The position numbers were made by a program, and so were the translations under genes. The notes under the pieces are model-generated. The model was not told where the DNA came from, did no database searches, and saw nothing but the letters and a program-made list of their open reading frames with translations. Source: Obrimoposthia wandeli (taxonomy: Eukaryota). From it: a stretch of DNA of 64,000 bases. Below, in pieces: positions 2,566 through 41,645 of this stretch (the stretch's first letter is position 1; every line of letters starts with the position of its first letter). The stretch is from the NCBI GenBank assembly GCA_977020255.1, contig CDROCS010005180.1, positions 62,001-126,000 on the forward strand, in the 5' to 3' direction.

Positions 2566-3123
2566 ACTAAAGTAGATTATGGGATTAATATTAGTAAGCG
2601 AGAATTTTTGAGTATATTGTCTACAGTATTTGACCCTTTAGGATTTGTGAGTCCGTTTATTGTAAAAGCGAAAATATTGATGCAAAAAGTATGGTTAAGT
2701 GGCTTAGGTTGGGATGAAAAGATAGAAGGAGATTTAAGGAAAGAGATAATGACGTGGATTTCACAGTGTAAAGATTTGGATCAAGTTCGAATTCCAAGAT
2801 GGGTCGGAATAGAACCGGATAAAGAAGAAGAGATTCACGTTTTTGTAGACGCTTCATCAGAAGCTTATGGTTCAGTGGCATATCTGAGGACAAGGAAAAA
2901 AGGAAAAATAAAAGTTGTGTTAATATCAGCGAAGTCAAAAGAACCGTTAAAAATAGATGATGTTGTGTTGGTATTAGAGAAGAAAAATGAGCGAGGTAAA
3001 TGGCCGTTAGCTAGAATAATAGAGTTGATAAAAGGACATGATGGATTAGTACGAGTAGTTAGATTGATGGTGGAAGGTAAGGAAAAGACGAAGTCGATAA
3101 GAAATTTGTGTTGGGTATTATGA
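2566..3123 (+). pseudogene. BEL/Pao RNase H N-part fused to integrase C-terminal (DUF5641-like) tail
   Basis: VFDPLGFVSP, HVFVDASSEAYGSVAYLR and SAKSK are joined directly to EPLKIDDVVLV..KWPLARI..GHDGLVRVV. Confidence 0.88.
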
Positions 3124-4663: not shown

Positions 4664-4889
4664 TAACCTTTTACGAATTTAAACGACTTATTTTATTAAA
4701 GTATATATAGATTATAAATAATAATAATTTCAATAAAATTTTTAAAATACATTTATAAATTACATGTTTTACAATCGTTTACAAATTATTTTATGAAATT
4801 TAAAAATTCTAAAAAATACTGTATGATCAAAATAATATATTACTGTATAAAAAAAAGATCTTAGTTGGGGTAGTGCAGTAAAATCATTA

Positions 4890-6150
4890 AAACATAAAGT
4901 AGAATTGATACATGATCCGGAAATGCTTAATCTATTTGAAACAGGTATTAGAGTAATTATGACTTTTGTTAATAAACATTAGTGTAAGTCCGATGATAGT
5001 ACATCACTTCTCTATATAGATGTGAATAACTTATACGGATGGGCTTTAAGTCAACCTTTACCACGTAGGAAATTTAAATGGGTGCATGATAATTTTGATG
5101 ATATTTTGAATTTAGTTAGAAGTGAAAAGAATTTAAATAAAACCGTATGGGGTTTTCTTGTTGTAGTAGACTTACATATTCCAGATCGTATACATAATAA
5201 AGTTGATGACTTACCTATTGGACTACATAAGATGTGTCCACCAAACTCAAAAACTCCTAAATTACTTTTAACACATTATGATAAAGAGCAATGTAATACA
5301 TTTCCGTTTACTACAATTCTATGTTTTTCTTGGTGCTGAAATCTTAAAAATTCATAGGGCTATTCGGTTTAGACAAGCACCCGTTTTAAAACAATATATA
5401 GATCTTAATTCAAACAAGCGGGCAACTAGTGTTATTAAGTTTAAATATGAGTTTTACAAATTAAAATAAGAATTCATTTTACGGTAAAACGGTTGAGAAT
5501 CTTAAGAGGCGGCTTGATATCAGATTATTTAATAACGAAAAACGGTTTGAAAAATTAGTTTTGAGTCCTTGGTTTAAACGTCATACTCAAATAAATGATG
5601 ATTTAAATTAGTTTTTTATGAAGAAACAAGAAAATATGTTTAGATCGGCCTTCATATATTGGTCAAATTGTACTTGATTTATCTAAATTATGAATGTATC
5701 AATTACAATATGTTGAGCTTGAACAGTATAGGCAAACTTTTAATTGTAGTATTCGAATTGTAGCTATGAACACAGATTCTTTTTTCCTTGAATGTGTGAA
5801 TATTAATAAGGATAAATTACTCAAATAAATGATTAAAGATGGGTATTTAGATAAGAGTAAGTATCCTAAAACACATCCCTTGTATTCAGAAAACTTTAAA
5901 GCTGTAATTGGAAAATTTAAAGATGAACGTGAGGGTACTGATTATAATGAATGGGTTTTCTTAAAACCAAAATGTTATTCACTTCAAAATAAATTAAGGG
6001 CTAAGGGTATTTCTTTAAAACAAACTAATTTAAGACATTAAGACTACCTCAATTGTTATGAAAATGAAGATTATGATGGTTAACCATCAGCTTCATACAA
6101 CATTTACTTCTAAAGTTGCTCTACAATGTTTTGACGATAATGGGTTAGTA
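4890..6150 (+). pseudogene. Protein-primed family B DNA polymerase (C-terminal half), heavily disrupted
   Basis: YIDVNNLYGWALSQPLP (motif A), KL..NSFYGKTVEN (motif B), AMNTDSFF (motif C with D to N), IGKFKDE, FLKPKCYS, RAKGI, spread over several frames. Confidence 0.9.
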
Positions 6151-6639
6151 AGAATAAAAGCCTTGCTTATGGTCATTTTAATTTAACTTAATATTTTTTT
6201 TTAAATAATATATATAGTTTGTTATTGCTGTTTGTTGTTGTTATTATTATTTAATGTATATCATCATTTGTATATTATTATCATTATTCATCCATTCACT
6301 TGTATATAATAATACAACTTTTGTGTTTAATCGCTTTATTTATTATATAGGATTATTTTGATTAGTTGGCCAATTATATTGAAGTTAGGTTTTTATATAA
6401 TCGAAACACTTAAGTTTTAAAATCATTTCATCATTATGACTCTAAGTACTTTAGATATATTATGTGCTCTTCGCACCAACCTTAAAGAAGACATTTTCAA
6501 ACTTTATACATCTCAATATTTTTCAATAGCTTTTGTAGAGCTATTTTATATAATTTTAAAATAACTTATTCAATGAATAATTGCACATGTGAAGCTCTCA
6601 ACATTGTCATAATTATAATTATTCAAGTAATTTAAATTT

Positions 6640-7782: not shown

Positions 7783-8189
7783 GCAGTACAACGTTTTAGT
7801 AGTAGAAGTGATGACTTCGAGAACACCCCCGAGAAAGGAAAGATACTCCCGAGTACGTAATCTGTTGTCATAGAAACTTCATGTGTGTCACCATGACAAC
7901 GAACACGCACAGTCTCCATGGTTTGTGTGTTTAACTTTTTTTCCATTTAAGTATTTAAATCTAGATACACTCAAAAAGCAAGTTTTTTCCTACATTATAC
8001 CCTCCAAAAATGCACAGTCGAGAAAATATTACGATTTTTTTAATAATATTTTTAATCCAATGATATACATGTATTCAATCATCGTCATAAAACTTAAGAA
8101 AATAATATAAATGTTCAAATAAATTATTTGAATAATACGCTCTCATTGGATGTTGAACTCAATAAGCAAAATTCAATAAGCTTTTCCCC

Positions 8190-9560
8190 GATGAGATTCC
8201 GTCGGATCAGGAGGAGGATTTGACTCCATTCATTGACGAATAGATCCCGCAAAGTCTCGGAGCACCAGACAACACATCTTCCGAAAACGAGTCATTGGTG
8301 GCAGAATTGGACAACGAAGAGTGGCGGCTATTAATTGACGAATTGGATGGCCTCACTCCATATGCTACTCCAACTCCAATAGCAGACAATACAGTGCCTG
8401 GACCATTCAGAAGGCCACAATATCCGATACGGGCAGTTAAGAAAATAAAGGCGACGAATGAGGTTAGTCTATTAATTTATTTAAAATGTTTTTTAATTTC
8501 ATTTTCAGAAACTTTAATTTGATTACCACTGGGACCACGGTGAGAGGCTGATAAAACTGCAGTACTTGACGAGTCAATGCAGCCAGGAGGAGCCAAGGAG
8601 TGAGCACCAATACATTGCGACTCTGGATAATATCAAGGTAAATTATTTTAAATTAGATAATAATTTTAATTATTCACATAGGAAGCCAACTTGGTGGATG
8701 AAGTTATGAAGGATGCAACTCTCAAACTACCAATGGAAAGGAAGCAGGTTGTGGTTAGGAAACCATGAAGACATCGGGTCAAAACCCAGACGGTCCACCG
8801 GAAGAAGGCTAAGTTGGTGAAACAGGCAAACCTGCCTGTTATTAAGGTAAATTATTTATATGTTTAAATTTTATTGATTGTTTTTGCTGGAACCAATACA
8901 ATTAACTGAGGAGACGTGGGGAAAATATTTATATTTTCTCGCTAAGACGAATGAAGCGGGCCGGAAGACAAGGCGCTCTAAAAAGGTGAAATCCTGTCTA
9001 CTCAAATCTACCGAGGTATCGATGTAGCGACAGGAAAAACTTTCTTATCCTATTATTGAGGTAAATTTTTAAATTTTTAATAACATTTTTTTAAATAAAT
9101 ATATTTTAGTAAATTTTATTAATGTTTTTTGCAGGAACCGGTCCAGATAATTGAGGAGACATGGGGAGAAATTTATTCTTTCCCGCGGAGACAAATGAAG
9201 CGAGCAGAGGTGCTGAAGACAAAGCGCTCCAGAAAATTTAGCACCGCAAACCTCAATTCTTTTGAGGCAGAGATTGGCCGAATGTGATTGGATTAAAAAT
9301 ATTTCAAATTTACATAAATAGGTTAAAATTTATTTACCTCTTCATAAATAAAAACATGGAATTTACTAAAATGCAAAGTCTCGTGACGAAAAAAGAAGAA
9401 AACATCAGAAGAAATGGGAAGAAAGGAAATTTAAGAAAGAGAATCCTGAATAAGAATTTGTACGCTGCTGTCGCGACCAAGTGGAATCGACGGGTGAAGA
9501 TTCAAGGCAGGATCCTGGACTGGAATAGGAAGGTAGAATTGGAGCAAAGCTGAAAAATAA
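8190..9560 (+). pseudogene. Spliced acidic-repeat gene of unknown function (copy A)
   Basis: Coding-like exons (QEEDLTPFIDE*, WRLLIDELDGLTPYATPTP..FRRPQ) separated by introns 8463-8508, 8638-8681, 8847-8889 (acceptor TG) and 9061-9134. Homologous to 21.3-23.2 kb (-). Confidence 0.65.
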
Positions 9561-10055
9561 GAGTGTAGATGGAGGACAATCGGCTAGAGGCAAGAAAGAG
9601 AATCCTCCAGATTAAACCTGAAGAAGGTCCTTCTTCTAAAAAATAAATATTTGAAAATTATTTTTTCTTTTGATTTTATTGATTATGTATAGTTTTACAT
9701 AACCATACTAAATATAAACAATTTAATATATAATGTTTTTTATAAGATGTATGATAAAATACATTTAAATAAATTATACACTAAATTATCTCCAGAAGGT
9801 TATGGAAAAAATTATTTCTCAAAAAATGATACCCCGGAAATTGTTGCAGATAAAATATGTAATTTACTTTCAAAATATTTAGGTAGGTTTACATTTAATA
9901 TATTTATTTAAATATTCATAGAAGAATTGAAAATATGTACCAATCTTAACGAAAAAAATGAATCCGGAGTACTTTCATATTTTAATAAATTTTGATTTAT
10001 GGTTTTTATTTTTATTCATTAAAAATAAAGGGATTTGCTACATATTTGGGTAATA

Positions 10056-10540
10056 ATGCAAGAATATATCATAGACTTTAAGGCTTTCATTAACAAAAAT
10101 GGAGATTATATTATAAAAGAATTATGTATTATGGATATATACGATGTTTTTCATGCGTTGCATTTCATATTCCATGCAGATATCCCGTTTAGGAGTTTAG
10201 ATTATAAGAAAAAATTTACTATTTATATCTCACTAATTATTATCTTTTATTAAAATGGAAAAAAGGACATAAGGTTTTTTGTGAAATATGTATTTTCGAT
10301 ACAATTAAATCTAATTTTGATATTTAAAATGGAATTTTTTTATGTTTATATGAAATGGATTGCAACACGTATAAGACTTTAAAAAAATATTTACATAAAT
10401 TGAGATTGAATACCTTAAATATTTCACATGATCATCTATTAAAAACCCACGAAACATTTGCTGTCCATATCGTGATCATGGTGACCATTGCGCATATAAA
10501 AAGTGTATAAGTCTATCTTACTATTACTTGACATGTAGAT
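10056..10540 (+). pseudogene. Viral/Polinton-associated ORF, possibly DnaQ/DEDD-like fold, disrupted
   Basis: YIIDFKAFINKNGDYIIKEL N-terminus and ICCPYRDHGDHCAYKKC C-terminus resemble a small ORF family seen in invertebrate endogenous DNA viruses. Fold assignment is from recall and unverified. Confidence 0.4.
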
Positions 10541-10790
10541 AAACAATACTTCTAATTGGAGAAATACAATATTTACAAAATAAAATTTTCAATCAATAAC
10601 AAAATACCTAAAAAAACAAATGAACAATCCTTTTAATTGGAGGAATAAAATATATAAAAATTAATATTATCAACCAATAACAGATAAACAATCCTTATCA
10701 TTGGAGGAATAAATTCAATATTTTCATTCAATAAGAAAAGAGCATATATGCATAAAATTTAGTATATAAATTCACACATTTTTCATTTCA
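10541..10790 (+). promoter_or_regulatory. Three repeated ATTGG (inverted CCAAT) units plus TATA box
   Basis: aacaatc/acttNtaATTGGag repeated at about 10542, 10623 and 10687; TATATAAA at 10763; ATG at 10810 followed by a GTAAG donor. Confidence 0.5.
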
Positions 10791-10809
10791 ATCGTCGATT
10801 TTTTAAATA

Positions 10810-11730
10810 ATGAATATGGTAAGAACCTTTATTTTTTATTCTTTATTAATATTTATTATTTCAAATTACTTATAACCTGTTTCCAGCATATTGTGGTGCT
10901 TCTGCTCCGCATGGAGCAGATTCATGCATGGCGATAATGTCCGCCTACTATCGGACAAAGTCACATAGGCGGGTGTACTTCATCTGCCCTTCTGCAGAAC
11001 TAAGACAAGGAGTTTCGAGACTTATTCAATGAACATCGAGATCACTTGTCCAGCTTTGTGGCTAACAACAAGAAGAGGACTGTCGTGCAAATAGTGTGCG
11101 ATTAGCTGGTCGGTCCAGCTCCTGTTCCAGTTGCAGCCTATCAACCTGTTTGCAGTCCTGAGATTGGTCCTTCCCTCCACTCTCCCGAATCTGCTGCTGC
11201 CTCATCCACTCAAATGACTAACAATGAGTATATGAACGTATCTTAAGAATATTTTGAGGATTTGGCGCCAGCAACCCAACTCTCGAACAATGAATGAATG
11301 AAAAATATCACCCAGTCAGATTTCGAGATGGAGCAGCCTCAGTGGAGCGACAACAGCTGGTTGGAGGACATCAAGGAATCAGACTTTGTCGAGTTAACAG
11401 ACGACATCTGGATGGATGCTGTCAATGAAGAAGACTTTCAACCATCTGCAGTTGGATTGCCTTCATCAGGTATTTTTTTATTACAATTGTTCTTATGATT
11501 TTTTTAAATTGTAATTGAATATGTCATATGCGGCAGCACCTTCTTCATCAGCTGCTATTGCCTCAACTTCAGCAGCACCGGCATCAACTGTTATTTTAAA
11601 TAGTTGTCTTCCCATTCAATTAGGGGGAGGTTTGTCAGCGACTCTAGGAAGAAAGAGGCGAGGCCAATTTCTTAATAAGGTTCCCCCAAAGAAACATAGG
11701 GAAAACGGTGCTTCTATAGATATCACCTAA
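10810..11730 (+). pseudogene. Spliced ORF with Trp/acidic repeats and a QLGGG motif, possibly the 5' extension of a pPolB gene
   Basis: GTAAG..TTCCAG first intron; repeats NNE*MKNITQSDF / DNSWLEDIKESDF / DDIWMDAVNEEDF; Ala/Ser linker, then IQLGGG. Confidence 0.45.
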
Positions 11731-11787
11731 ATAATAAATATGTTATAGTAAAGGTTCCATTAAGAAATAAAATTTTATTAAACGTTA

Positions 11788-12020
11788 GTGCAGATTCAAA
11801 TATTGAAAGTTTTTTTTAAATCAGAAGTGACTAAATTAGGTCAGGCTAAGGTTCAATTTTGCGCAACAGTGCAGTTTAAAAATGTCAATGAGGAGTCTAA
11901 AACTTGTGTAATTTCACATAAATATTATAATTTTGTAACTGAAATTGGAAGAATTCTTGATGAAAAAATTGCTAATTATAGCGAGTTAAGTAGTGGACTC
12001 TAGTTAGAATTCACGATGTT
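11788..12020 (+). pseudogene. Polinton pPolB N-terminal region fragment
   Basis: AKVQFCATVQFK..ILDEKIANYSELSSGL*LE resembles the KI..F...GSGW.L segment that precedes Polinton polymerase domains. Confidence 0.45.
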
Positions 12021-12136
12021 AGCTTTGTTGTGATGGCGCGAATTGTGGTCGCCCTGGGTGGTGCGTTGTGGTGACCCTTCATATTTTTTTGGTGAAGGGA
12101 CCCATCCCGTTCGTTGCTTTTTCAACAAAAAAATTA

Positions 12137-12240
12137 AAAATTTCACTCCACACACATACACGAAATTTCACTCCACACATATTCACGAAATTTCACACCA
12201 CACACAAATGCACGAAATTTCACTCCATACACATGCACGG
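12137..12240. repeat. Four to five copies of an ~24-bp unit (cacgaaatttcactccacacat)
   Basis: Directly visible imperfect tandem array. Confidence 0.9.
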
Positions 12241-12289
12241 TTTTAAAAGACAGTGGTAGCCTCCCCGGGGTGAGGGGTGGATTAAACCG

Positions 12290-12560
12290 GACATATCCAC
12301 CTACTAACAATATCAAGTTCATTATGTGCATGCTTCTTAAAAGTTGGTATTAGTTTATTATCCTTAGATGAAAGGTAGTGCTTTCCTAATGTTGATACAA
12401 ATCGTCCGAGTCTCTTCAAAAGAGAAAAGGCAAATCTACCTTATGTTTTAAGCCAGCCAGATCCATATTGTTTGCTAACAAAATATGGTAATTCTCCACC
12501 TTGTTGGCTTTGACTATAAGCTTCAATTTTTGCCGCTTTTTCGCCATTTTGTTTTCTTAA
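12290..12560 (-). pseudogene. Polinton small core/membrane-active protein-like gene (QxGG-LP-x-F, GxGW motif)
   Basis: QSQQGGELPYFVSKQYGSGWLKT*GRFAFSLLKRLGRFVSTLGK, directly downstream of penton; premature stop. Confidence 0.6.
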
Positions 12561-13479
12561 ATGTATTGTTAAACTTGTCTTGTCTTCGTATGTGAAATCT
12601 ATTAGGTGTCCGGAATCATCTCTAATATTTACTTCAATATTGTTTATAGAAAAGAGAACATCTGGAAGATACATTGGTTGATCTATACGAATACCGATAA
12701 AGTCCCCAATTTTAGTTTGACTTTGAGATATCTTTATTGTTCTTAAAGGTGGAACTCGTAGTCCTCCTACAAACGGGTTTTAAAGGTATTTATGTTTAAA
12801 CTGAGGTTTTTAGCGAGTTTATCATCAAATGAAACTCGTTTTACATAGCTCTTTACTGTAAATGTCAGTTTACCATTTTTTTAATGTTACACATTAATCC
12901 AAATATTCACTAAATTCCTTCTGTATAAATTTACATAAATTCACTTCATTATCTATTTTATAGTCTTTAGAAAACATTTTCAGTTCCACTACATCCTTTA
13001 CTCTCGTTTTAAGTAACAACACTCTTGCTACACTACCAGGAACATTTCTAACTGATTTAGATGAGACTATATCCCGTCTATTACTAGCTACTGTTTGCTC
13101 ACTATCAAAACCGAATTGAAGAGCTTATTTTTCAAATTCAAATGTAATTTGAATAACTTGAATAAACTTTAATCAATTTTTAAATCTGACTTTGTTATTT
13201 TCATATATTACTTTCACTTCTTTATCTTTACAATTGTAATAGAACTAGATCACAATTTCATTTGTTTTTTCATAATTAAATTATTTTGTAAACGAAATAT
13301 GTGAGTTTTTTTGATAGTAATTGGAGAATAATAAAAGAAGAAAATTCCGTTTAAGCCGCTTCCCATTCTCCTTGGAGATTTATAGGATTTTCCCAATCGA
13401 TACTAAAGCTACTAGCGTCATTATCCGGCTGAGTCTTCGGGCATCCGTTACTAGGTAAAACCATATACATAGACTTCAT
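12560..13479 (-). pseudogene. Polinton minor capsid (penton) gene, disrupted
   Basis: N-terminus MKSMYMVLPSNGCPKTQPDNDASSFSIDWENPINLQGEWEAA*TEF; C-terminus IEVNIRDDSGHLIDF..SLTIHLRK. Its ATG overlaps the integrase TGA (ATGA, 13479-13476). Confidence 0.78.
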
Positions 13480-14498
13480 ATTATATTAGATGCAGATATC
13501 CAAGTTGGATCTGAATAACCATGCCATTTAACATAGTATTGTTTATGTTTACCGGTACCCTTAGATTTTAATATTTTTTGAATACGTTAGGTTTAATTGA
13601 TATTACTTGTAGTTCTTGCTCGTAAAATTTACCGTAAACGATATTATTTGCAGCATGTTTTATAGTATACATTATTGGATTACTCTTTTGATCAATTTTA
13701 TTTATACAAAATATTTCATCGCTCCAATTCTGATCAAACATTTTAATAAATGGAGTAGATCTAATTTTAAAAATTCGAACATATTTGTTTTTCTTATATT
13801 TAGCTTTTTTAATATTTTCTTTTTTATTCCTGTCTATCCAAATATCCATAGAGATTTTATCAGTAACATCAACAAGTCTCATTCCCTTGAGACTTATATG
13901 TTCAGAGTGATTATATGCATGTATTATTTTAGGTAAAACTTGGATCCATTTTTTTATTTCCTTCTTTTGTAAAATACTTTTTTATTCGATCTCTTAAAGT
14001 ACGATTAAATCTTTCTACTACTGCTGCTTTGTACTGCAAAAACACCGAGTAGTGATTTATATTATTTTGTTTAAATAAAGATTGTACTTGCTTATTATAA
14101 AATTCTTTTCCTAACTCACTTTGCACATTTTGTGGAATGTCCTCTTTTAATATTTCTTTAATGGCTTCAAGCATAGCTCTTGAAGACTTTGCTTTAACTG
14201 GAATTTCACGAGCAAACCTACTCAATACATCAATACATGTTAAAATATATCGATATCCCTTATTAATGGAAGAATATGGAATCATCTCCATCAAATCCAT
14301 TTGCCATAAATTATTAGGACCGCTGGTTTTGTAAGCTCTAGTTGGAAACCTTCTTCTCGTCGGCTTGTTCAGGCTGTAGGCTAACTGATCGCTCAGCCAT
14401 TTCTGCGTTTTCTTGTAATTCTGCTTTGTTCTTTTTACCAATTTTGAAACTCCTGTGTAGCAAATTGGATCTTTTGGATTGAACCATATCTTCTCCAT
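13476..14498 (-). pseudogene. Polinton retroviral-like integrase with C-terminal chromodomain-like tail, frameshifted
   Basis: WQMDL, YILTCIDVLSRFA, KAAVVERFNRTL, QNWSDEIF, GKFYEQELQ and KGTGKHKQYYVKWHGYSDPTWI over three frames. Confidence 0.92.
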
Positions 14499-14569
14499 TA
14501 CAACAATTTGAATATATAGAAAATTTAAATTTAGGTAAAGAAGGGTTAGCACCCATATCTTTAGCTGAT

Positions 14570-14914
14570 TTTATAAATAATTGTTTATGAACGTGTTGCA
14601 GCTATAATATTACTGATAATTGAAGCAACAACTAGAATAACAGCCCTTATGAAACCACCATTATTTTTAAGAATAATATTTCATTTTCTTTTTTTACTTT
14701 TTACATGAGCAATATCTAGAAGAGTTTTTCTATTTTTCTTTAATACATTTTTCCGTTTTCCAACTTTTATTCGACCCAAAACTATATTATACAAAACTTC
14801 CAATAAATCATATACAACAAAATATGGAAAAGCTTTAAGAATACTCATTTTCTTATGAGAAGAGAATTTGACCAAAGCTTTAAAATAAGGTATGCTTCTT
14901 TGTATTTTCTTCAT
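14570..14914 (-). pseudogene. Small basic Polinton protein ending in a GGF + hydrophobic motif
   Basis: Lys-rich ORF continues past a stop as NIILKNNGGFIRAVILVVASII, a putative adenain-site pattern. Confidence 0.55.
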
Positions 14915-15114
14915 TTAAAAAAAGTTAAATTTTAATATTGTTTATATTCGAAACCATTTAAGTTTTCTTTTATTTCTTGATTAATTTATTCACTTCTTTT
15001 TTTTAATATTTTTTTTTTATTTCTTAGGCTTTGCTTTTACTTTACGTTTACGTTTCACTCTCAACAATTTAAAAGGCATTGCAAATTTATTTTTTATTAT
15101 TGTTCTCTATTTGT

Positions 15115-15731
15115 TTATAAACAGTTACTCCCTTAGAATTAAATATGACTGTTAATATACGTAAATCATCTGGACAAGCTTGTGTAAAATCAATAAATAT
15201 ATACTCATGTGCTTGTTTAGCAGCATGATGGAATGAATCAACTAGAAAGTTCTTATTTTGGGGAAATGCCTGTCTGGCTACGAAATCTACAACTGTTTAA
15301 TCTCTAGGATTTTTCAATAAAACTAAGTAATATACATTAAGATCTCTTGTTATATGATGACCTCCTTGGTGAAAAAGATTTTGAGTGATAAATATAACAG
15401 TTACTTCACGATGTCTTGCAATCTTTGTAAATAAATTATTAAAGTCTGATTCCTTGTTAGCCTCCCGATACAAATCATAATTTATTATTTCATCTTCTTT
15501 TTTCAATCTTTCGCACCAATTCGCATCAAATCATTCAATAAATTTTATTCCCTTCAACTTGCAAACTTCTGTTTGGGTTAATTCACTTTCCCCTCCTCCA
15601 TCATGATGCCAATAAATATTTTTGAAAATAGAATTGAAAAAAGATTCATTTTGCAACAATTTACATACGAAATGTGTTTTTCCACTTCCACTGGGACCAA
15701 CTATTTGAAATACGGCATTATTTAGCTCCAT
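15115..15731 (-). pseudogene. A32/FtsK-like DNA packaging ATPase, disrupted
   Basis: Walker A GPSGSGKT, RHREVTVIFITQNLF, YLVLLKNPRD, YIFIDF. Confidence 0.9.
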
Positions 15732-16101
15732 TACATATACTCTTTTATTTTAATATTGTTTATATTTTCATAGAAGTTTCCTTATTGAAAGGTATATTGT
15801 CAGAGCTAGTGTATATGAAATACAAAAATCAATTAACGATATTTGGCTATAATTTTATTTATTTGTGTTTGATTTCTAAATTCTAGAATAACATGTGATC
15901 TAACTAATATTTCAATATTATCTCTTGTTGTATCATTATTTTTTAATTCTGATAAAATTTGTTTACTCTTAATTTTTCCAGAAAAAAAAATTTGTTTACT
16001 ATTAATTTTTCCAGAAAAAAATTTCGTCGACAAGACGATCCACTTGTTTGTTTGTATTTATAGTATTATTCATTTGAAACAATAGGTTTAAACGGGTATG
16101 G

Positions 16102-16496
16102 TTATAGAAAAGATGACAAAATGTAATAAAATATATTTTCTAAAATCGATTCAACAATGTCTGGATAATCAAAATTTATCAATGCCAATATCATAACTTT
16201 ACCACTGGAAAATATATTTACACAAGCGGTTTAAACTTCAAATAACTGAGAGCAGGAAAAAATTCCTGTTCAAACTTGCATTCTTCTATCATTTTCTCTG
16301 CAATTTTATAAAGATTTATTTCTTACCCGTGATTAGCTGAAATTGTGATTGATTGTATGTCGCTGATTCAAATTCCAAATGGTAAATTGAACTCATTCAA
16401 TGGTTTCTTACATCCCATAACACGACAACTTCCGAAAAGAATTCAATATGAAAATAAAATCTAACCTAAGGGGAAAATAACAACTGTGAAATCATA
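16102..16496 (-). pseudogene. TBP (TATA-binding protein)-like gene, disrupted
   Basis: Manual translation TVVIFPLG..GSCRVMGCKKP..IQSITI..INLYKIA..CKFEQEFFPAL..FKP/CVNIFSSGKVMIL has two TBP-type half repeats (IFxxGxxxxMG, EPELFPAL, IFxSGKV). Two stops and one frameshift. Confidence 0.68.
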
Positions 16497-17684
16497 AAAA
16501 AAATTCACATATTGTCTCGGCCTCCAATCATTGAATGGTAAGTACGAAATTCCACCTCCAATCCTCCCTTATAATTTATATTTACGAGTTTCATTAAAGT
16601 AAAATTGTCTTCTGTAAATTCTTCTTTATATATTTTTTGAACCTGCTTTTTTATTGCACATTTCTTGTAAATGTCTTGCACACCTATTATAATTAGATGA
16701 TATATTTCTTCCAATCAATTTCGATTTTTAATATGGATTTAGTCCAATCAAATTCAATGCTTTAGTTATATTAACCAATGACATTCATGTTTTTGTTACA
16801 AATTAGTATAAAAGCATGCGCCATTGGGGGACAAATCATAATATATGCATTCATATCAAAGACAATTGTTAGAGCTAAATTTAAAAGAATATTAGAATAA
16901 CAAATATTTAAATTACTATCCTTAAAAAACTTTTAAGCAAATAAATAACAATTGTTTAAAGTTAATAATAAAGTTTATACCAAAATACTTATTAAAATGT
17001 TATGTAGTGACCCCCAATTAAGAATAATAGTTTAAAATATTAATTAATTTTGTGTAAAATTCACATTTTTACGAATAACCTTTGTAAGAAAAATCTTATA
17101 TCAAAATCTGAACTACACATAAATTAGTAATAAAATATCGATTTATTTCATGCATACTCGAAAGTTTTACAACTTTCGTATTAAAAAAGATCAACAAAAA
17201 TGTGAATTTTGTTAATGAAAACGTTAATTAATTAAACTTTAAAGAAGAATTTCTAGACATCTAAAATTCGCAAATAAATGAACAAAACACCATTTTAAAG
17301 CATAAATTATTTCCAATTGAAAAATGTACGGCTCATAAAAATCCCACCTTTTGGTAAAAATTTCCTATAGTATAAGAAAGTACATAAAACTTTACAATAC
17401 TTACAGGCAAACACACCTACTATGAACCTAAGTGGACAAATTATCTAAAGGACCAAACCCCATTTAGATTAAATTAATCAAAATCAAAAGCCCCGACAGG
17501 AAAACCCGGGCACTACATAGAAATAGAAGAATATAAAAATCCTGGTTTTGGGGAATAAATTCATTATTATTTCTACTGGACATCGTGCAATAATAAGAGT
17601 TTTAATTAAAAAGTTATTTTAATTATCCTTTGAATTGCAACCAAATATTTTTAATAAACTAAAAACCATCAACCCAACTCCACC

Positions 17685-17886
17685 GAAAAGTAATACAGGT
17701 GATTGATTTTTTGTTTATGCTAGTTTTATTTTTACTATTGTTTCTTGTTGTTGTTGTTAAAACTTATTATGAACTCTCAAAATTGTTGGCCCCCTGGCCA
17801 TTTTTGTTTTGTTGTAAATAATAAAATTTTATTATAATATTTATATAGAATAATTTTTAATATTTAAATTAAGCCCAACAATTTTG
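17685..17886. repeat. ~195-bp direct repeat, copy 1, with an internal 12-bp inverted repeat
   Basis: Near-identical to 19967-20166; caaaattgttgg (17778) pairs with ccaacaattttg (17875). Confidence 0.92.
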
Positions 17887-19966
17887 GTGTCTCCAGAGAG
17901 AAAATAATAAAATAGATTAATAATAAAATAATAACTCGACGTTTTGGAAAGTGATGTACTATCACTATTCGGACCCGCATAGACGGTGCCACAACGTTAT
18001 AAATAATTATAATCTACAAAAAATAGTTTTGAATAGAAATGATTATTTAGTGAAATAATTTTGAAATTAAGTTTCAGCTTTTAAACAAAACTTTTATTAA
18101 ATAGTTTACAAATAAAATTAAATAAATTATTTTAAACTAAAATTTATATTTACCTTGAAAATATTATATTAAAACCAAACTATGGCGAGGTCGTATAATA
18201 CTTAATATATAGATTATAACTTTCAATTAACAAATAAAACTAAAGAGTTGTATTTAATTGTTAAATATTTAACATATATATAATTTTATTTTGAAATAAG
18301 GAATAGAAAAATAGAAAAATGCAAGATTAGGTTTAAAGCGCGACAAAACAGAACTTATATTTATGAGTACATAAATTATAATATTGAAAGTGTCGGTCAT
18401 TTATTGTTGAAAATTTGATTAGAAACCGTTAAGTTTTAAAATTGACACTTTAGAAGTTTAAATAGTAAATATAAAGTAACCTTGTACAAAGACTATTGGA
18501 TATTTTCTAAATATAAAACATATATGAACGATTTTTAATTTATGGTAGCATAAATAAAGAAACATCAAAAGTATTTTCATTTACTGATCTTATTTGTAAT
18601 TATGTGTTCAAATAAATTTAGTTTGTTTGTGTTCAATTTTGCAACAGCTTATTTTTACTATCACACATTTGATTAAATTTTATATAAATAGTTAACCTGT
18701 AATTTAAAAAGTTCAAGTTAAGTCTGAGATGAGAATTGTATTTTATCTTGATTTTTAAATAAAAGTTATGATTTTTTCTAATCTCAAAAAAAAAGTGAAA
18801 TGAGTTAATCATTCAAAATAAATTTACGCTTTTAAATTATTTTAACTATTTGAATTTTAGTTTGTTGAATTTGTTTAAATACATTAATTATTTATAATAA
18901 AAAGAAAATTTAAATTCAAATTCAACAATATTGATAACATTCCATTTTATTTATGCAATTTGAGTTTTTGAAGTTATAATATGATCTAAAAGATTTTTTT
19001 AAAGAAATGGTAAACAATTTGGCAAAAATTTAAGACAACATAAGCCTTTTACAATCAAAAAATTAAATTAAGATTTTCTCAAAACTTTTGAGATCTGGAA
19101 TAAATACAAAATAACTGGTTATGCGTGAAATGAGCATTAAGCCGGTTAATGACATTGATTTCTACAATTAATATTTGATCAAGAAATATAATTTTGGCTT
19201 GATGTTTGCTTTTGCTCTTTAAAAATTCCAAAAATAAAACAATCTAAGTTAATCTTATATATTATTTTCATTCATTTTGTTGCATTATTCGCATGCTGTA
19301 TATTAAAAAAAATTAATGAACTTTTTGAAAAATTACTTTAAAAAAAAGAGAATTTTGCTCCAAACTAATAATATTCTGCAATTATATGTATCTAAACACA
19401 TTCGTTGTTGTTATAAACCAAATTTTTAAATGTTCAAAAATTCGACTGACAAAAAGTTTAAATAATTCGAAGAAAATTCATAAAGATTTTGTTTAAGATC
19501 AAAGTTTAATTTAGAGGTAAATGCAATTTAAAAGTAAATTTTGCAAACCTTATTGAAAGAGAAGTACAAGGTTGCCCAAGGACATCATTATCATAAGTGT
19601 AAATATCCAGGTTCGTGTTAGTTTCATAATGTACCAAAAAGAGTTAGTACTCTTAAAACTTAATCTAGGTCCTTCTGTTGAGGGATTTATTAACAAAATA
19701 TCGAGACCCTCGCACCAGGTTGTGAGAAAAAAATACACAGAGAACAAATTTCTAATTCATCAAAATGATTATTTCGGGAAATTTGGGGATTTGTATTCTG
19801 TGTAAATGTCCTAAAGCCCTTCTGACGAGGGTTATTAATTCAGCCAACCATCTGGGACCCAAGCTCATCGATCAGCTGTCTCCAAAGTTGATGTTGCAAA
19901 GACACCGGAAATTCTCCAATATTACTGAATGAATGGGAATATTAAATTCAAAAATTATTCCAATTG

Positions 19967-20166
19967 GAAAAGTTATACAGGTGATTGATTTTTTGTTTGT
20001 GCTATTTTTATTTTTACTATTGTTTCTTGTTGTTGTTGTTGTTGTTAAAATTTATTATGAACTCTCAAAATTGTTGCCCCTGGCCATTTTTGTTTTGTTG
20101 TAAATAATAAAATTTTATTATAATATTTATATAGAATAATTTTTAATATTTAAATTAAGCCCAACA
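19967..20166. repeat. ~195-bp direct repeat, copy 2
   Basis: Matches 17685-17881 and ends about 10 nt before the ATG at 20176. Confidence 0.92.
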
Positions 20167-20175
20167 CAATTATCA

Positions 20176-20628
20176 ATGATGAACGATATCCAACAGATAT
20201 TAAGCTGTGATGAAGATTTAGAAATGTTTGGAGAATCAGATAAAGATATGTATGAAGATATGAAACAATATTTCAAATACAAAGTCAGATTCTTGAAGGC
20301 TCGACTGATTGCTTTAGTAAATCCTGTGACAATTGAAAGAAGAACGTTCAGCTATTATCTATCAAATATTCAAAAACCAGATTTTCAATATCTAAAACAG
20401 AAAGTTGAAAATGAAGTTCCAAATTTTATTTTCAATAAGAACGAATTTTATATCCGAGGAGCTGATGCAGCATTTCTAGATGACTATGGAAGAAAAATAA
20501 ATGTTGATGCGTTTCCGAAAAAGAAGCAATGGACTGTAACAATTCGACTCTATGGTTACAAGAAAGATGAAATTGGAACAAAGATACCTATGTGGAAAAT
20601 TGAACGTGCTCATATCTCTATGTTTTAA
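20176..20628 (+). CDS. Intact 150-aa ORF, unknown function, possible beta-barrel/SSB-like C-terminus
   Basis: Uninterrupted ORF in very AT-rich DNA; AATAAA downstream; C-terminal motif shared with the next ORF. Confidence 0.6.
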   Translation: MMNDIQQILSCDEDLEMFGESDKDMYEDMKQYFKYKVRFLKARLIALVNPVTIERRTFSYYLSNIQKPDFQYLKQKVENEVPNFIFNKNEFYIRGADAAFLDDYGRKINVDAFPKKKQWTVTIRLYGYKKDEIGTKIPMWKIERAHISMF

Positions 20629-20792
20629 CTTTTTTCTTTCATTTTACATGTAATAAATTGTAATCGGTTTTATTCATTTTTACTATGTTTCTTTCATTTG
20701 GCAATTAATAATCAGTTTATTTTTCATGATATTTGTATCTTATATGTATTTTTTTATAAACATTGTTTTTTTAACAGTTTCTTTATTTTAGA

Positions 20793-21203
20793 ATGGATCC
20801 TCTCCTGAGATATGTAGGAAATTTTTATTATACAGAAATAATTTCAAAAGGAAAACTATGTAATATATTAAAGAGGCATCAAATTATACCAGTTATGAAT
20901 CCTGTGAAAATATCAAAAGTAAAGAATAAATATCTCATTGAAATTTTAACAACATCTGATATTGATCAATTGAAAAATATTTTGGGATTTTACATACCTG
21001 ATTACGTATATGAAGAAAATTCTTTCCAGTTTGAAACTGATCCCAGTTTGACTTTTAGAGATGATCTCAGATATTTGATTGCTCTAATTTTAGATGAAGA
21101 ATTATGGAATATTTTAATACGCCTCAATGGTTATTTTGCTGATGACGGCGAAATGCACTCTCTTTGGACTTTGAGTGAACCCAATGTGGTGTTTTATGTT
21201 TGA
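20793..21203 (+). CDS. Intact 136-aa ORF, probable paralog of 20176-20628
   Basis: WNILIRLNGYFADDGEMHSLWTL aligns with WTVTIRLYGYKKDEIGTKIPMWKI. Confidence 0.6.
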   Translation: MDPLLRYVGNFYYTEIISKGKLCNILKRHQIIPVMNPVKISKVKNKYLIEILTTSDIDQLKNILGFYIPDYVYEENSFQFETDPSLTFRDDLRYLIALILDEELWNILIRLNGYFADDGEMHSLWTLSEPNVVFYV

Positions 21204-21339
21204 TTTAAAAAATGCTTTGACTCATATTTTGATTTTTTATAAATTAAAAAAGACTAAATGTTACTTCTTAAAAATTATATTTTTATGAAAGAATTTGACG
21301 AAGTAATCATTAGGATCACACTCATTGGTATACCTCCAA

Positions 21340-23200
21340 CTTAGAGGGAGAGGTTCTGGTGGTACTGACTGCTTCTTCTTCGGTCGGCCGGGCGGGCATC
21401 TTCTTCGACTGAACACCTAGTGGTCGTTGTGCAGCAATTGCCGTCCAAGGCGGGTTTGGTAAAAGTTGCCACAACTTTTAGGTGCAGTCAATATAGATGG
21501 CCCACCCACTGAAGTTGAAGCTTTCTTCATCCATAGAGCCTTCTTCTTCTCCTTTTCACACTCCAGCTGCTGATAGAAAACAGAATATATGGCCTGGTAT
21601 TGCGGAGTCTCCAGTATCGCCAGAAAATTGTCCAACCGAGCTTCAAGCCAGGCCCTCTTCAAGTTCTGGCTTGTGGGGTACATAGGAAGAGGAGATGCAG
21701 CCTCCCTCGCTCTCACCAAGTTTTGAATTATGCTGGATGCTGCTGAATAACCGGTGGTGGTGACGGAGTAGAGATGGCCTGCAATGTCTCCTGCAATCGA
21801 CACTGGCCGGGAGAAGGAGTTATCCTGATTGGAGCAACGGGTATCCTCTCGTACAAGATCAACCAGTCCACCGTTGAAGGAAGTTTCTCCTGCTGCTCAA
21901 TCGTCACCTAGGTAGACTCGAGCAGACTAGTGGTCGGATTCCTTCTCTTCTTTTTTGAACCACCGCTCGATGCTTGCACCTTGGTAGGATAGGAGTAGCC
22001 TTTCTCAACAAGTCCTCCAGTAGCTGCACCTGATCTGGTTCCTGCATTAAAAAACATTAATAATTTTTTAAATATTAAAAGTTTACCTCTATTATTGGTA
22101 GTTTCGTCTGTTTCACCTTCTTGCTTGGTATGATTTTCGTTGTTATCTTGTGTTTCTTCTGCATAACTGCTTGTTTTCAATCGATCGGTAAGAGCAGCGT
22201 CTTCCAGCCCGTCCTCCACCTGATCGGCTTTCTAAATAATTAATTATATATTTCTAAATAATTTACCTGAATTTTATTGAAGAACGTCAGATATTGCAGT
22301 TGAGTGCTTGGCAACTCCTAGCTGCATTTATTGGTGACGATCTCTGGTTCAAGCAGCATCTCCACTGAAGTCACTAACAGTACCATATCCAGTTGATGTT
22401 TCTGTAAAAAATAAAAATCAATGAATTAAATAAATAATCCAGCATAATTCGTCAACTTTATTATCCTGTCTCGTCTCACAAGAGTCTGTGGCCTTCGGAA
22501 TACTTCAGGCATCGTATCGTCTGCAGTATGAGTTGGAGTAGCAGAAGGGGTAAGACTGTCCCATTCGTCTGTGAAGAGACGCCACTAAATATCGTCCAAC
22601 TCGACGATGATTGAGTTGTTTGTGACTGGAGCGCTGCTGCTTGGCGGGAAACTTGGGTGTCTTATTCATCAAGGAAAGGAGTGATATCCTAGTCCTTGTC
22701 AAATTCGATAATGATACTGTTGCTGATTTATAGGGTTACAGTGTTGCATGGGAGAACCGGAGCCACACCGTCCCATTCGTCGATGAAAGGAGTCAGATCC
22801 TCCTCCTGTGTCGGCGGTATGAAACTCGTATCATTCACGGTCGGTTCTTCGAAGAGATCCTCATTAGAGTCTGGAGCGAGAATTGTCTCCGGCTGAGACA
22901 ACGGGATCAACTTCTACGATCAATTAATACCCTCTTCGATATTGTTGAAGATATTACTCCTCGGTGGTCTCCTTGCTGCTTCCGCTGAAATTGATGGACG
23001 AGGTACTATATTATGTCGAGAAGTACAGTCTTCAATTGACTCCTGACTAATCAGGTCAATATATTGGGATTTCTGTATCGCTCCTATTGGTTCTCTTGGA
23101 GTCGAAGTGACGAAAGGACCGTTCATCAGTTCTTGACTTACTCCTTGGCTCACCACCGTCGAGTCTTGACTAAGTAAATTAATTACTATACATTAATCAT
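21340..23200 (-). pseudogene. Spliced acidic-repeat gene of unknown function (copy A', paralog of 8.2-9.6 kb)
   Basis: QEEDLTPFIDEWDG and WRLFTDEWDSLTPSATPT..FRRPQ; introns ending at 22402, 22266-22232 and 22086-22042; TATAAATA at 23494-23487. Confidence 0.65.
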
Positions 23201-25433
23201 AATCATCAAGTGACCAGAGTGGTGAGTTGAAGAAATACCAGACCAATAGAAGAAGTGACACACAGAGGAGAATAGAAAATCAGTGGACGAAAATAATGAT
23301 TAATCAGGAATAACCAGAAAATTGATATGAAAGAAGCATTACCTCTACAAGAAAATAAAAAATATCTTGGACACCATACAGAAGAAGAAGAATTTTAAAG
23401 GAAGCCGCAAGAAGGTCGACTCAACCAAGAACAGGTTGCAACAAGAGAATTGAATCATACGACAAGCAGCACTACAGAAGGACCGATATTTATACGGTGA
23501 GTAATCCTATATTGTAATTTTAAATCTAAACTTCGAAATTGAGCAAATTACAATTTAAACTAGTAAAATTGTGTTTATTTATCCTGTAGCAGGATCATTA
23601 TTTTTGGTAAAAATAAAATCTGGGTAAAATTCTTAAGCATGAAACACGCTCAAGCCTTCTTTAACTTTTAACCCTATTGTTTAGTCAAAATAAAATCAGC
23701 CTGTAAACGACACAAAACACATTATCCCAGACACATATTGATCAATTGGTCAGAGTTTACGTGATTCTTTTTAACATTGTTGTTGTGTAAAATTCTAGTT
23801 TTAACCGACTTATTATATTTAATATTTTGATTTTGGTAATAAAATAAAGCACTTTATATTTTGAAAAAAATCGTTCTAAAATTCGACAAATAAGACAAAG
23901 ACAATACGATAATTTTTGAGAATATTTTTGTCGTACACGTTTTAAAACATAGAGAATAACCCTACGGTTTTAGCCGAAAAACATAAATTTTTAAAAGTCA
24001 TCGACTCTCTGATTAAGCGAAGATTTACAATTAAATGAGGTATAAAAAACGTATACCTTCAGATAATTTTTGAGACGAATAAGAGGATAGGCCGTCTATA
24101 CAAGTCCTATCAATTTAAAAAACTCACGCACCAGAGGCTTCCCTAAGTAGCGTTACAACTCTGGTTCCAACACCTTCATTATCTAAATTCTGTAAGCTGT
24201 GTAAGTGGGAAAATGTGTATTTCAAACATTACAATAATATTGGGTTTGGTATTGGTTTGTCATATTTTTGAAAAATAGAAAAAACTTTAAATTATTTTTT
24301 AAATTGGAAAATGTAGACTAAAGAATTTTTTTTTATTTTTTCACTTTTGAATTTAAGCAAAAATTTCAAGATTAATAAATAAAAATGTTGCAAATATCCC
24401 AGTAATAGGAAAATGGTTAGACCAGAGCACTATCTAAAAAGGGAGTAATAACAACGTTTTGGGTTGTGGTCTGGTCTATCCAATTTCCTATTACTATCTT
24501 TGTAGGGCAAGCCCAGTGTGTTGGAGTAACAACTAATGAAACTAATAGGTTTAAACACTAACCTTTGAGATTGTAGTAGATTTATTAAAATTAGTCTTCT
24601 AAATAAAAAATTGCAACATAAATAAGCATTTGAACTTAATCTAATCAATTCTAGAATCTAATTCTTTCCAGTATGATACCCCAACAATTCAAATTAATGT
24701 TAAATCATTTTATTCCATATCTCTAGTGATAAATTTACCAATGTCATCAATTTTTATATAATGTCTTTCTCAAGCTTTTAATTAGTTAAATAAGGCTATT
24801 TTGTTGGCTAAGTATCAATGGAAATAAAAATAATATACCTGGTATTTTCGAGATTTTGTAATTCTAATTCCAACGGGTGAATTTTTTTAAATGAAAAAGT
24901 AATAAGATTTATAAAATTTGCTTGAACTAATACACACTACAAATGAATATAATTTTCGTTATTACATAATTTATTATAAAGTTTAAAATGCAAATAATAA
25001 TAAAATATTTATTTTATATTCGAAACATTTTTATTAGCATTTATTTACTTCAAAATTAAATATATTAAATGTAATTATATTTCTTTGCTAGTCCCCTAAG
25101 AAAATTTATCTTTAAGAAATAATAAGTAATGCATGTTTACTGAATTTTATAACCTTTTTTTAATTAAAATTTAGTTAGATAAAACAGAAACTTGTATTTT
25201 TTAAATTTTACACAATTTGCAAATATTTAGAGTCTATATTGAAAGTTATTTTAAATTTAACATGGTACTGAGGAATTGTTTTTATTTTCTTGTTTAGTTG
25301 TACCATTTGTTTATATCTGTTTAAATTGTTTTCGAAAGTGTAATTACACAAAGAAATACTGTGTAAATTGTAAATTATTATAATTTTAAGCCCCTTAATA
25401 TATTTATTTAGATTTCAAAATTAACCCATAGAA

Positions 25434-27363
25434 ATGAACATTCAAGGAGGAGATCAGAATGACCAAGCCCTGTGGAAACAGTATCTAAATATACCAGAAA
25501 AAGATTCGAGACTTAAAACTGTTGATGTAACTGCAACCCAAGGAAATTCATTTGACGATTTTTGTCTCAAAAGAGATATTTTGAAAGGAATTTATGAAAA
25601 AGGCTGGGAGATGCCATCTCCCATTCAAGAGGCCAGTATTCCTATTTCACTAATTGGTAGAGATATTTTAGCCAGAGCTAAGAATGGTACTGGTAAGACT
25701 GGTGCTTATTCTATCCCATTGTTGGAAAAAATTGACCCAAACATTAATCAAATTCAAGGTATAATATTAGTTCCAACTCGGGAATTGGCCTTACAAACTA
25801 GTCAAATTTGTACAGAATTGGCCAAACATACCGAGACAAAAGTAATGGTAACTACTGGAGGCACAAGTTTAAAAGATGATATTGTGAGATTGCAGCAATC
25901 TGTTCATATTATAATTGCAACACCCGGTAGAGTTCATGATTTAATTAAACGAGATATTATATCGACAAACTTTTGTAAAATTCTAGTAATTGATGAAGCT
26001 GATAAACTTCTTTCAGCCGACTTCGAACAAGTTCTTGACTTCATCATTAATAAACTACCAAATCAGAGGCAAATCATGCTGTATTCAGCAACCTTTCCCC
26101 AAACTGTACAGTCCTTTTTAGTAAAGCACATGAAAGATCCTTACGAAATCAATCTCATGGATGAATTAACCTTGAAAGGTATAACCCAATATTACGCTTA
26201 CGTTCAAGAAAGACAGAAGGTCCACTGTTTAAATACATTATTTTCTAGATTACAGATAAATCAGTCAATTATTTTTTGTAACACTGCTCAGCGTGTAGAA
26301 TTGCTTGCAAAGAAAATAACCGACTTGGGATATTCGTGCTATTATATCCACGCCAAAATGAATCAAGTTTACAGAAATAGAGTTTTCCATGAGTTCAGAA
26401 ATGGAAATTGTCGAAATCTAGTCTGCACTGATCTGTTTACCCGTGGTATAGATATACCGTCTGTTAATGTTGTGATAAATTTTGATTTTCCAAAATATGC
26501 CGAAACATATCTCCACCGGATTGGAAGATCGGGTCGATTCGGTCACCTTGGTATTGCAATTAACCTTATTACGTACGAAGATCGCTTTGCGTTGAAGAAT
26601 ATAGAAACGCAATTAAATACGGAAATCAAGGCTATCCCTAAAGCAATTGATAAACGGCTATACGTGGCTGAGTGTCAGAATGAAAAAGAGCTTGATGCGC
26701 GAACCCGAGATGCGCTCGCTCGTGGTGAAGGCCAACTTCTCGAGCTGGATCCAATACAGTGAGTTAATAAAATTATTTTAATAGAACCCCAAACTACGCT
26801 TTTATAATTTATAAACTTATTTTGTTATGTATTGTATAAGGCTCTAAAATCTATAGATTTTCATGATACTTACAGAAATATTGAAAGCCGTAAATTTTCT
26901 TCTGTCTTGGTTTAAATTTTAAATAATAATAATTCAGTTTTAAATTGAAATTTTCAGCATTTCTTTTATTGTTATTACATAATAGGTGTGCTATTTTATG
27001 AAAATAAATGCTGGTCGCTATTCTTAAAACAATATCTAATTTAAATTGTAAATTAGTTATTTTTGTCTTCAATTTTTTAAAATATATATTTTAAAACCCG
27101 ATTAATTTTGAAAATACATTTAAAGACCACTTTGTGTTACATTTTTGATTAGACTTGCAGAATATGATTATGTTAATATCTTCATTTGCCAGTTAATAAT
27201 CAATTTCTTTCTCAGACAAGCTATGGCGAATGGGCCAATTACCAATGTACAGAAACCGAACCCACCCGTTCAGAAGCAAAACCCCATGAATCAAGGCGCG
27301 CGCAACGACTTTAATAACGCCTACTCTCAACGGCAGCTTCCCCAACAAAATATTCGACAGTAA
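25434..27363 (+). CDS. DDX6: DEAD-box RNA helicase DDX6/Me31B/Dhh1; exons 25434-26758 and 27216-27363
   Basis: [37 protein letters not shown] and RLYVAE are intact. GTGAGT donor at 26759 and CTCAG acceptor at 27215 join in frame to a Q/N/P-rich exon. Confidence 0.97.
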
Positions 27364-41486: not shown

Positions 41487-41645
41487 GAAGCTACTGATTA
41501 CGAGAAGCTACTGATTACGAAAAGCTACTGATTTCGAGAAGCTACTGATTACGAGAAGTTATTGATTTCGAGAAGTTATTGATTCCGAGAAGATACATTG
41601 ATTTCGAGAAGTTACTGATTTCGAGAAGCTACCGATTCCGATAAG
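41487..41645. repeat. 17-bp tandem array (gaagctactgattacga), about 9 copies
   Basis: Directly visible, degenerating rightwards. Confidence 0.95.

Follow-up and report, generated by a model that had tools for sequence, protein, structure and literature searches.

The window analysed here, 64,000 nt of contig CDROCS010005180.1 from Obrimoposthia wandeli, carries on its minus strand (16594-16102) a dead copy of a two-exon gene for a TBP-family protein of about 150 amino acids, here called mini-TBP. The gene lies in a decayed Maverick element with the following features:

7948-21237: decayed Maverick copy, the extent common to sister copies when seven sister stretches are aligned
11782-12003, plus strand: 5′ remnant of a protein-primed DNA polymerase B gene, matching the N-terminal part of the L058 polymerase (E 9.5e-6)
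12030-12305: 276 bp ending in a terminal-repeat-like piece, in place of 4.4-5 kb of two sister copies
12285-13547, minus strand: PZ-like gene and a small ORF, with YATAAACA at 13547 and 12648
13479-14501, minus strand: rve integrase gene, frameshifted (Pfam rve, E 4.1e-10)
14338-15119, minus strand: three small ORFs (a basic ORF, a PW-like ORF and one reading MGANP...), with YATAAACA at 15119, 14946 and 14589
15099-15764, minus strand: packaging ATPase gene (ATG at 15731; YATAAACA at 15764), its product 56-72% identical to the ATPases of relatives
15835-16073, minus strand: small ORF between the TBP and ATPase genes, its YATAAACA degraded in the window copy
16102-16433, minus strand: mini-TBP exon 2 (end of lobe 1 and the C-terminal lobe), matching Pfam TBP, with two stops and one frameshift
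16434-16466, minus strand: probable spliceosomal intron, short and in phase 1 within a Gly codon, with a non-canonical acceptor in the window copy
16467-16594, minus strand: mini-TBP exon 1 (reduced N-terminal lobe), frameshifted in the window copy
16624-16632, minus strand: TATA box of canonical type, TATATAAAG, 38 nt before the TBP ATG
16711-16779, minus strand: three reverse CCAAT (ATTGG) boxes, spaced 31 and 33 nt
16868-20162: nested 3.3-kb insertion, missing at that site from the sister copies that span it
20140-20628, plus strand: conserved neighbour ORF, divergent from the TBP gene in the window and co-directional with it in relatives
20755-21203, plus strand: ORF with YATAAACA at 20755

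The two TBP-type half-repeat motifs that a sequence-only reading had placed at this site are present, and the minus-strand translation runs VVIFPLG, the insert, SCRVMG...INLYKIA...FEQEFFPAL...KPL, a frameshift, CVNIFSSGKVMIL and a stop codon (16104-16102). That reading had put the gene directly upstream of the ATPase gene; the two are indeed on the same strand, but the small ORF (ATG at 16073) stands between them. We set the start at the ATG at 16594, about 100 nt upstream of the start noted earlier and at the first TBP strand (MKLVNINYKG), because intronless homologues begin at the VNINYKG motif; 27 of 30 copies have an ATG at the homologous position. A start at the ATG near 16662 was rejected, since this ATG is 5′ of the TATA box, homologues begin at the later motif, and indels in that stretch run at 0.60 per row per 100 nt (exon 1, 0.13). 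In the window copy, in-frame stops fall at about 16370 and about 16325, and the frame shifts near 16565 and near 16224. Read with X at four stops, one frame matches Pfam TBP with E=1e-4 and 22.5 bits (cut-off 22.9), and the short tail of the gene alone gives E=0.13. Exons of sister copies score 44.8 and 49.3 bits against the same profile (PF00352), above the 22.9 cut-off; the naturally open exon 2 of two sister copies matches Pfam TBP with E=1.1e-11 and 4.6e-13, and two first exons tested alone had no Pfam TBP match. That the gene is a TBP homologue is almost certain. The mini-TBP copy in the window is itself inert, and its value lies in the family that it reveals.

We searched the genome (1.35 Gb, 6912 contigs) with the DNA of the gene and obtained at least 40 scored matches among 5452 candidates, namely the window itself and 39 others of 88-90% identity; the best 30 matches were cut out for comparison as a sister-copy set, whose members are not independent of one another. 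A 25-nt word spanning the junction of the insert with exon 2 has 498 exact occurrences in the genome (control, 0), so the family numbers at least 498 copies. Pairwise identity among the 30 copies is 88-98% (median 91%), and substitution rates at the three codon positions are flat (0.046, 0.056 and 0.059), which indicates that the copies decay neutrally and led us to reject selection among them. Both exons are open and both splice ends canonical in six of the 30.

The surrounding element is incomplete in the window. Its own termini were not found there; in sister copies, a repeat of about 170 bp ends the element on either side and is inverted in one stretch. The 4.4-5 kb that the 276-bp piece replaces holds, in the two sister copies, a PF03175 polymerase gene with an endonuclease-VII-like domain, a protease-like ORF and an ORF of about 410 amino acids. 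The homologue of this last ORF at locus L058, 58% identical, has a TM-score of 0.84 to the PF21738 double-jelly-roll cluster (the capsid profile had no sequence match in the PDB), and the major capsid gene is deleted in the window copy. Sister copy L039 matches PF03175 PolB with E 4.7e-13 and 3.6e-12. The window ATPase is 69% identical to the L058 protein, which matches Pox_A32 above the cut-off (E 1.8e-6). The protease-like and minor-capsid candidates are conserved ORFs at the expected places and have no Pfam match; from its position, the PZ-like gene would encode the minor capsid protein. We use PW, PZ, protease and minor capsid protein as putative designations. The nearest Atlas clusters to the neighbour ORF are hypothetical proteins, mostly of Nucleocytoviricota (score 0.94, recognition below the bar), and our impression is of a resemblance to an OB-fold DNA-binding protein. 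We class the element as a decayed Maverick whose polymerase is of the Alpha type described in PMC8502044. It shares with the Alpha-type adintoviruses or Mavericks of that study a PF03175 polymerase, an rve integrase, an A32-like ATPase, a double-jelly-roll capsid protein and putative terminal repeats.

Other parts of the window hold further remnants. Positions 4860-6200 (plus strand) carry another decayed piece of a polymerase B gene, distinct from the first and derived from a different Maverick copy or family, and 10030-10530 (minus strand) a decayed ORF without a Pfam match, homologous to L062:9591 and L065:5870, whose N-terminal IDF/IDY-type motif suggests an exonuclease. Two stretches, 8285-8700 and 22212-22621, form a diverged, element-related inverted pair (67-71% identity), and 21268-23187 resembles the left part of the element and may be a second, older copy. 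An intact single-frame DEAD-box helicase gene at 25425-26762 (plus strand), which we assume to be DDX6-like, is probably a host gene adjoining the element. The repeats at 1345-3123 (plus strand), 38984-40156 (minus strand), 50000-50900 (minus strand) and 41461-43610 comprise a retroelement pol remnant (RVT_1), two remnants that we take to be transposase-like, and tandem arrays with units of 17, 46 and about 36 nt.

Mini-TBP is found well beyond this genome. A profile search returned 50 proteins at E<=1e-30; relaxing the limit to 1e-10 gave 531, cellular TBPs among them. Six intact homologues of 146-157 amino acids were present among 25 candidates. The 47 metagenome loci that we recovered divide into 27 close relatives (37-58% identity) and 20 weak matches (24-29%), and in none of the latter was an element gene seen. 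Among the close relatives, nine have ATPase, integrase or capsid genes and nine have the neighbour ORF, with one locus in both groups; the remaining 10 are on contigs shorter than 2.2 kb. Loci L058 and L062 have the order TBP, ATPase, integrase, capsid genes and protease, followed by the protein-primed polymerase gene on the opposite strand, and L071 shares this order as far as the capsid gene. The link to a Polinton-type ATPase thus recurs in relatives, where mini-TBP adjoins Maverick core genes. The genome that contains the window has at least two further, intronless mini-TBP families with open frames of about 150 amino acids, 92-100% and about 73-78% identical to L111; one intronless family scores 63.8 bits against Pfam TBP (cut-off 22.9). 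In L111 (1306-1740) and L112 a polymerase-like ORF flanks the gene on one side and the ATPase gene on the other, and in these further families the neighbour ORF is downstream, not upstream, of mini-TBP. Searches of viral_contigs for relatives of the TBP, the ATPase or the capsid protein returned none, as did phage records. In L062 (5616-7687) the PZ-like gene is duplicated in tandem, and in L064 the neighbour ORF is. We built a quick tree from 109 rows and 109 columns, in which a branch with 97% support divides the 88 mini-TBP rows, without exception, from 21 cellular rows that include two host paralogues; 60 of 106 inner branches of this tree are unresolved, and its rows do not include the main host TBP or NCLDV TBPs. 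The element-encoded origin proposed in the sequence-only reading is borne out by this separation from host TBPs together with the synteny in relatives.

The predicted fold agrees with the family assignment. Profile-profile comparison with cellular TBP gave 99.3% probability (E 2.4e-20, 122 columns), with a 12-residue gap where helix H2 lies. The fold was predicted for a homologue, the metagenomic protein P0005: the AF2 model from a 69-sequence alignment has a pLDDT of 96.6 and a pTM of 0.87, and the five models agree. A first fold on six sequences was weak (one of five models good; its top viral fold matches were NCLDV TBPs) and was replaced by this run. The P0005 model is a TBP saddle that superimposes on human TBP with Z 13.2 and an rmsd of 2.6 Å over 149 residues (VIA); the best 38 VIA rows are all TBP-containing chains (Z 10.7-13.2, rmsd 2.6-3.0 Å), the first non-TBP row has Z 6.9, and Foldseek gave E 4.9e-9 and TM 0.72. 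With cellular and archaeal TBPs (PF00352; 7egb_P, 1ytb, 1mp9) the predicted model shares the two-lobed saddle over 149-151 aligned residues. At about 150 residues mini-TBP is smaller than cellular TBP (about 180): there is only a 3-residue turn at the place of H2, a helix that carries regulator-binding surfaces, and H1 is shortened.

Residue frequencies were taken over 84 full-length homologues, with yeast numbering from Table 1 of PMC12529657; the hhalign comparison does not reach positions 69, 71 and 99, which were assigned from the multiple alignment and the structural register. The equivalents of N69 (87%), F116 (96%), F190 (100%), P191 (87%), F207 (99%) and E188 (96%) are kept, so that three of the four intercalating phenylalanines are present in 96-100% of homologues, whereas the F99 position has no conserved aromatic residue among the 84. 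The DNA face differs from that of cellular TBP elsewhere: V71 is replaced by N (75%), V122 by R (94%), T124 by M (98%), N159 by S (85%), V161 by T (76%) and L205 by N (96%), making the V71, V122, V161 and L205 positions polar in this protein encoded by a mobile element. The acidic TFIIB stirrup is kept, with E at yeast position 188 (96%) and at position 186 (93%), which we take to be a stirrup residue; the equivalent of 184 is not conserved. The acidic TFIIB residues named in PMC12529657 are E184 and E188.

Viral TBP-like factors offer precedents. Among the TBP mimics of beta- and gammaherpesviruses, KSHV ORF24 (PMC12529657) uses a TBP fold for late promoters with host Pol II and, like mini-TBP, has a polar-rich DNA face, the V122, V161 and L205 positions being polar in both; ORF24 is, however, a 752-residue multidomain protein that lacks the acidic TFIIB residues and reads TATT, whereas mini-TBP is a bare saddle with the stirrup kept. 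The poxvirus factor VITF-3 (PMC12917281) is likewise a viral TBP-like factor for a stage-specific promoter, the role proposed here for mini-TBP. NCLDVs and poxviruses, however, have an RNA polymerase of their own, and a TFIIB-like protein forms part of VITF-3; the Maverick loci examined showed neither an RNA polymerase nor such a partner.

Two kinds of upstream word distinguish the mini-TBP gene from the genes that follow it. The TATA box TATATAAAG is exact in 17 of the 30 copies (TATAAAG in 22), and 27 copies have at least two reverse CCAAT boxes upstream of the TBP gene. The word YATAAACA marks the packaging and structural genes. Between 12306 and 16867 it occurs six times on the coding strand, against 0.7 in shuffled sequence and one on the opposite strand, a density of 1.3 per kb compared with 0.09 per kb per strand in the 24-64 kb part of the window. 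The ATPase gene and three small genes each have it 32-40 nt ahead of their ATG, within an overall range of about 32-44 nt; the distance to an ATG is less clear for the sites before the PZ-like gene and the next ORF. Five sister stretches contain 31 coding-strand copies (3.3 shuffled; 4 on the opposite strand), and five other elements, a sum that leaves out the near-duplicate L060, contain 39 when the last base may be A or G (9.2 shuffled; 4 against 6.8 on the opposite strand). In these other elements 24 of the 39 words are 29-52 nt before an ORF, and 15 have no ORF of at least 55 amino acids within 15-70 nt. In 21 of the 30 copies the word of the small ORF overlaps the TBP stop codon, and YATAAACA is absent from the 60 nt upstream of the TBP ATG in all 30 and from the 110 nt upstream in 16 of 16 relatives. 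Nine of these 16 relatives have a TATA-like word upstream of TBP, a count made without a chance control, and none has more than one CCAAT box near the gene. In L062 a mere 2 nt separate the start of the TBP gene from a preceding ORF with YATAAACA upstream of it, which blurs the division between early and late genes.

We propose that working copies of mini-TBP serve as the element's own promoter reader for packaging and capsid genes; this is the best explanation overall, with a probability of roughly 0.62, and a late-promoter role through YATAAACA specifically seems fairly probable. Host Pol II would transcribe the mini-TBP gene early from its CCAAT and TATA promoter, and the host spliceosome would remove the intron. 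The protein would then bind the minor groove of YATAAACA with its three kept phenylalanines and a surface more polar than that of host TBP, preferring this word over TATAAAAG, and its retained acidic stirrup would bring host TFIIB, and with it Pol II, to the late genes. Without H2 it would escape the regulators that dock there. The intronless ATPase, integrase and capsid genes would then be transcribed late. An element-encoded transcription module had already been suggested in the sequence-only reading; it gains support from the strand-biased word before the packaging and structural genes, with binding and activation inferred.

The main rival to this late-promoter model is that mini-TBP is a real element gene whose product is a decoy or repressor that ties up TFIIB or blocks host TATA boxes, while host TBP or a Forkhead-type factor reads YATAAACA. 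Loss of H2 and of the F99 equivalent could prevent normal nucleation of the pre-initiation complex, and the word resembles TATAAA: its ATAAACA core is a TATA variant that host TBP might read and also fits a Forkhead-type site. On the other hand, the spacing between YATAAACA and the ATG is fixed, as for a TATA box, and the first base of the word may be C. The DNA-face changes, moreover, are family-wide and polar, as in ORF24 (PMC12529657), and we regard the decoy as unlikely. It is improbable that mini-TBP instead bends DNA during replication, integration or packaging and has no part in transcription: the gene does adjoin those for the ATPase and integrase, and TBP-like folds occur in rolling-circle initiators (Z 6.0-6.4), but the acidic TFIIB stirrup is kept in 93-96% of the 84 homologues and a dedicated upstream word exists.

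The sequence-only reading had also described a 33-nt insert (16466-16434) with a non-canonical acceptor whose splicing would restore the motif; the insert is as described, and its interpretation as an intron is upheld by canonical ends in most copies and by homologues that are continuous across the site. Among the 30 copies its length is 32-40 nt (38 nt in 14), and the donor is canonical in 24, the acceptor in 25 and both in 20, a few of the misses possibly being anchor offsets. Indels number 1.67 per row per 100 nt in the insert, for which T runs are partly responsible, against 0.13 and 0.20 in the exons. Removing the insert restores colinearity with intronless homologues: the junction is continuous in 24 of the 25 relatives (of 27) that could be scored there. 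At the remaining locus, L071, the same Gly codon is interrupted in the same phase by a 40-nt insert that is unrelated in sequence and canonical at both ends. When L071 and the intron family were constrained to a single origin, p-AU was 0.065 for exon 2, 0.27 for the ATPase and 0.016 for the integrase, the integrase set containing half-filled, probably frameshifted rows; on these alignments a single intron origin is neither shown nor cleanly rejected. Since the trees do not join L071 to the family, either an old intron has been lost repeatedly or there have been two gains at a CAG/G-type site.

Introns and intron candidates of comparable size occur in other genes. Two host TBP-gene introns are 47 and 48 nt long. 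All six relatives checked have a 43-46-nt intron candidate in the neighbour ORF, each time following the same three bases. The 5′ region of the polymerase gene in sister copy L040 (1002-1196) has candidates of 62 and 47 nt; none turned up in the window or in the part of L039 that was scanned. In L058, L062, L065 and L071 the ATPase, integrase and capsid genes each consist of one ORF. The polymerase gene seems to begin in small upstream exons that are acidic and rich in Ala, Ser and Thr (window 11294-11800, plus strand), and the acidic ORF near 11294-11498 may be one of these. The exact junction word of an intron-free DNA copy occurred at 0 places, for the one variant tried, which does not imply absence; two contig runs from one sample, its kind unrecorded, gave no intron match among the 15 joints listed of 308, a neutral result. 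Homologues that start at a Met after the intron site were considered as a sign of further introns, a reading we rejected because P0067 clusters with full-length P0172 and P0075 with full-length P0173. We conclude that the insert is very probably a spliceosomal (U2-type) intron. Alternatively, it could be an insertion that inactivated the gene in the founder of a non-autonomous family, which intronless sister families then spread. Such sister families with open frames do occur in the same genome, and the unspliced reading is blocked in 29 of the 30 copies. We nonetheless consider an inactivating insertion very improbable, given the canonical ends in most copies, the L071 insert at the same codon and phase, the 43-62-nt candidates in other genes of the clade beside host introns of similar size, and the retention of the family's conserved residues in both exons.

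Lastly, Mavericks can carry intron-bearing host cargo (10.1101/2022.07.12.499685) and this host has several TBP-family genes, but it is hardly credible that mini-TBP is a processed or captured host copy carried as cargo, since the host genes, on four other contigs, are 31-41% identical to P0005 (over 32-72 residues), whereas the corresponding values for the exons of L019, a sister copy, are 42% and 54%. In addition, the two host paralogues that the tree includes group with the cellular rows, host TBP frames are continuous at the intron position, and the gene is syntenic in distant Mavericks. A processed host TBP pseudogene is excluded by these comparisons, because the gene branches apart from host TBPs and adjoins Maverick core genes in relatives. 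Of the host genes (L098, L099, L100/L103, L101 and L102), two share a contig in head-to-head orientation, another is more divergent, and a near-identical pair, both without introns, is split between contigs.

A TBP-labelled gene in the broad Maverick virus group is not wholly unreported. The label "TBP" appears once in the main text of a study of adintoviruses, in the Fig. 5 legend on MELD viruses (Starrett 2021, PMC8502044), and in two legends of the preprint 10.1101/697771; the main text of the former has no mention of "promoter" or "splic", and one of its supplement files has 0 TBP matches. In a nematode Maverick, core genes are described as intronless and intron-bearing genes as cargo (10.1101/2022.07.12.499685). 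Our literature search, judged mostly on titles and the beginnings of abstracts, found no paper devoted to a Maverick TBP or its promoter. Compared with the Mavericks as presented in PMC8502044, mini-TBP is here a conserved lineage marker, split by an intron in some members and accompanied by a candidate late promoter. Mini-TBP is a real, lineage-wide viral TBP variant, here intron-split and dead.

More tentatively, and at somewhat less than even odds, this widespread animal-type Maverick lineage may run an early/late cascade that would be the smallest viral late-transcription system known, built on a TBP of 150 amino acids whose intron is gained and lost. Its spliced early genes would be under host CCAAT and TATA control and would gain and lose introns at the same site; the TBP, with a re-tooled DNA face, would have kept the TFIIB contact and shed H2, and would direct host Pol II to YATAAACA ahead of packaging and capsid genes that have no introns. 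How a Maverick without its own RNA polymerase times its capsid genes bears on whether Mavericks and Polintons are real viruses. A dedicated TBP with a matching word would, if true, amount to a virus-style late programme made of one small protein and an 8-bp word, and the intron, if spliced, would bind its expression to the host nucleus and spliceosome. Mini-TBP is, in addition, a natural minimal TBP of apparently changed specificity, and as such bears on which parts of TBP are needed for Pol II to start.
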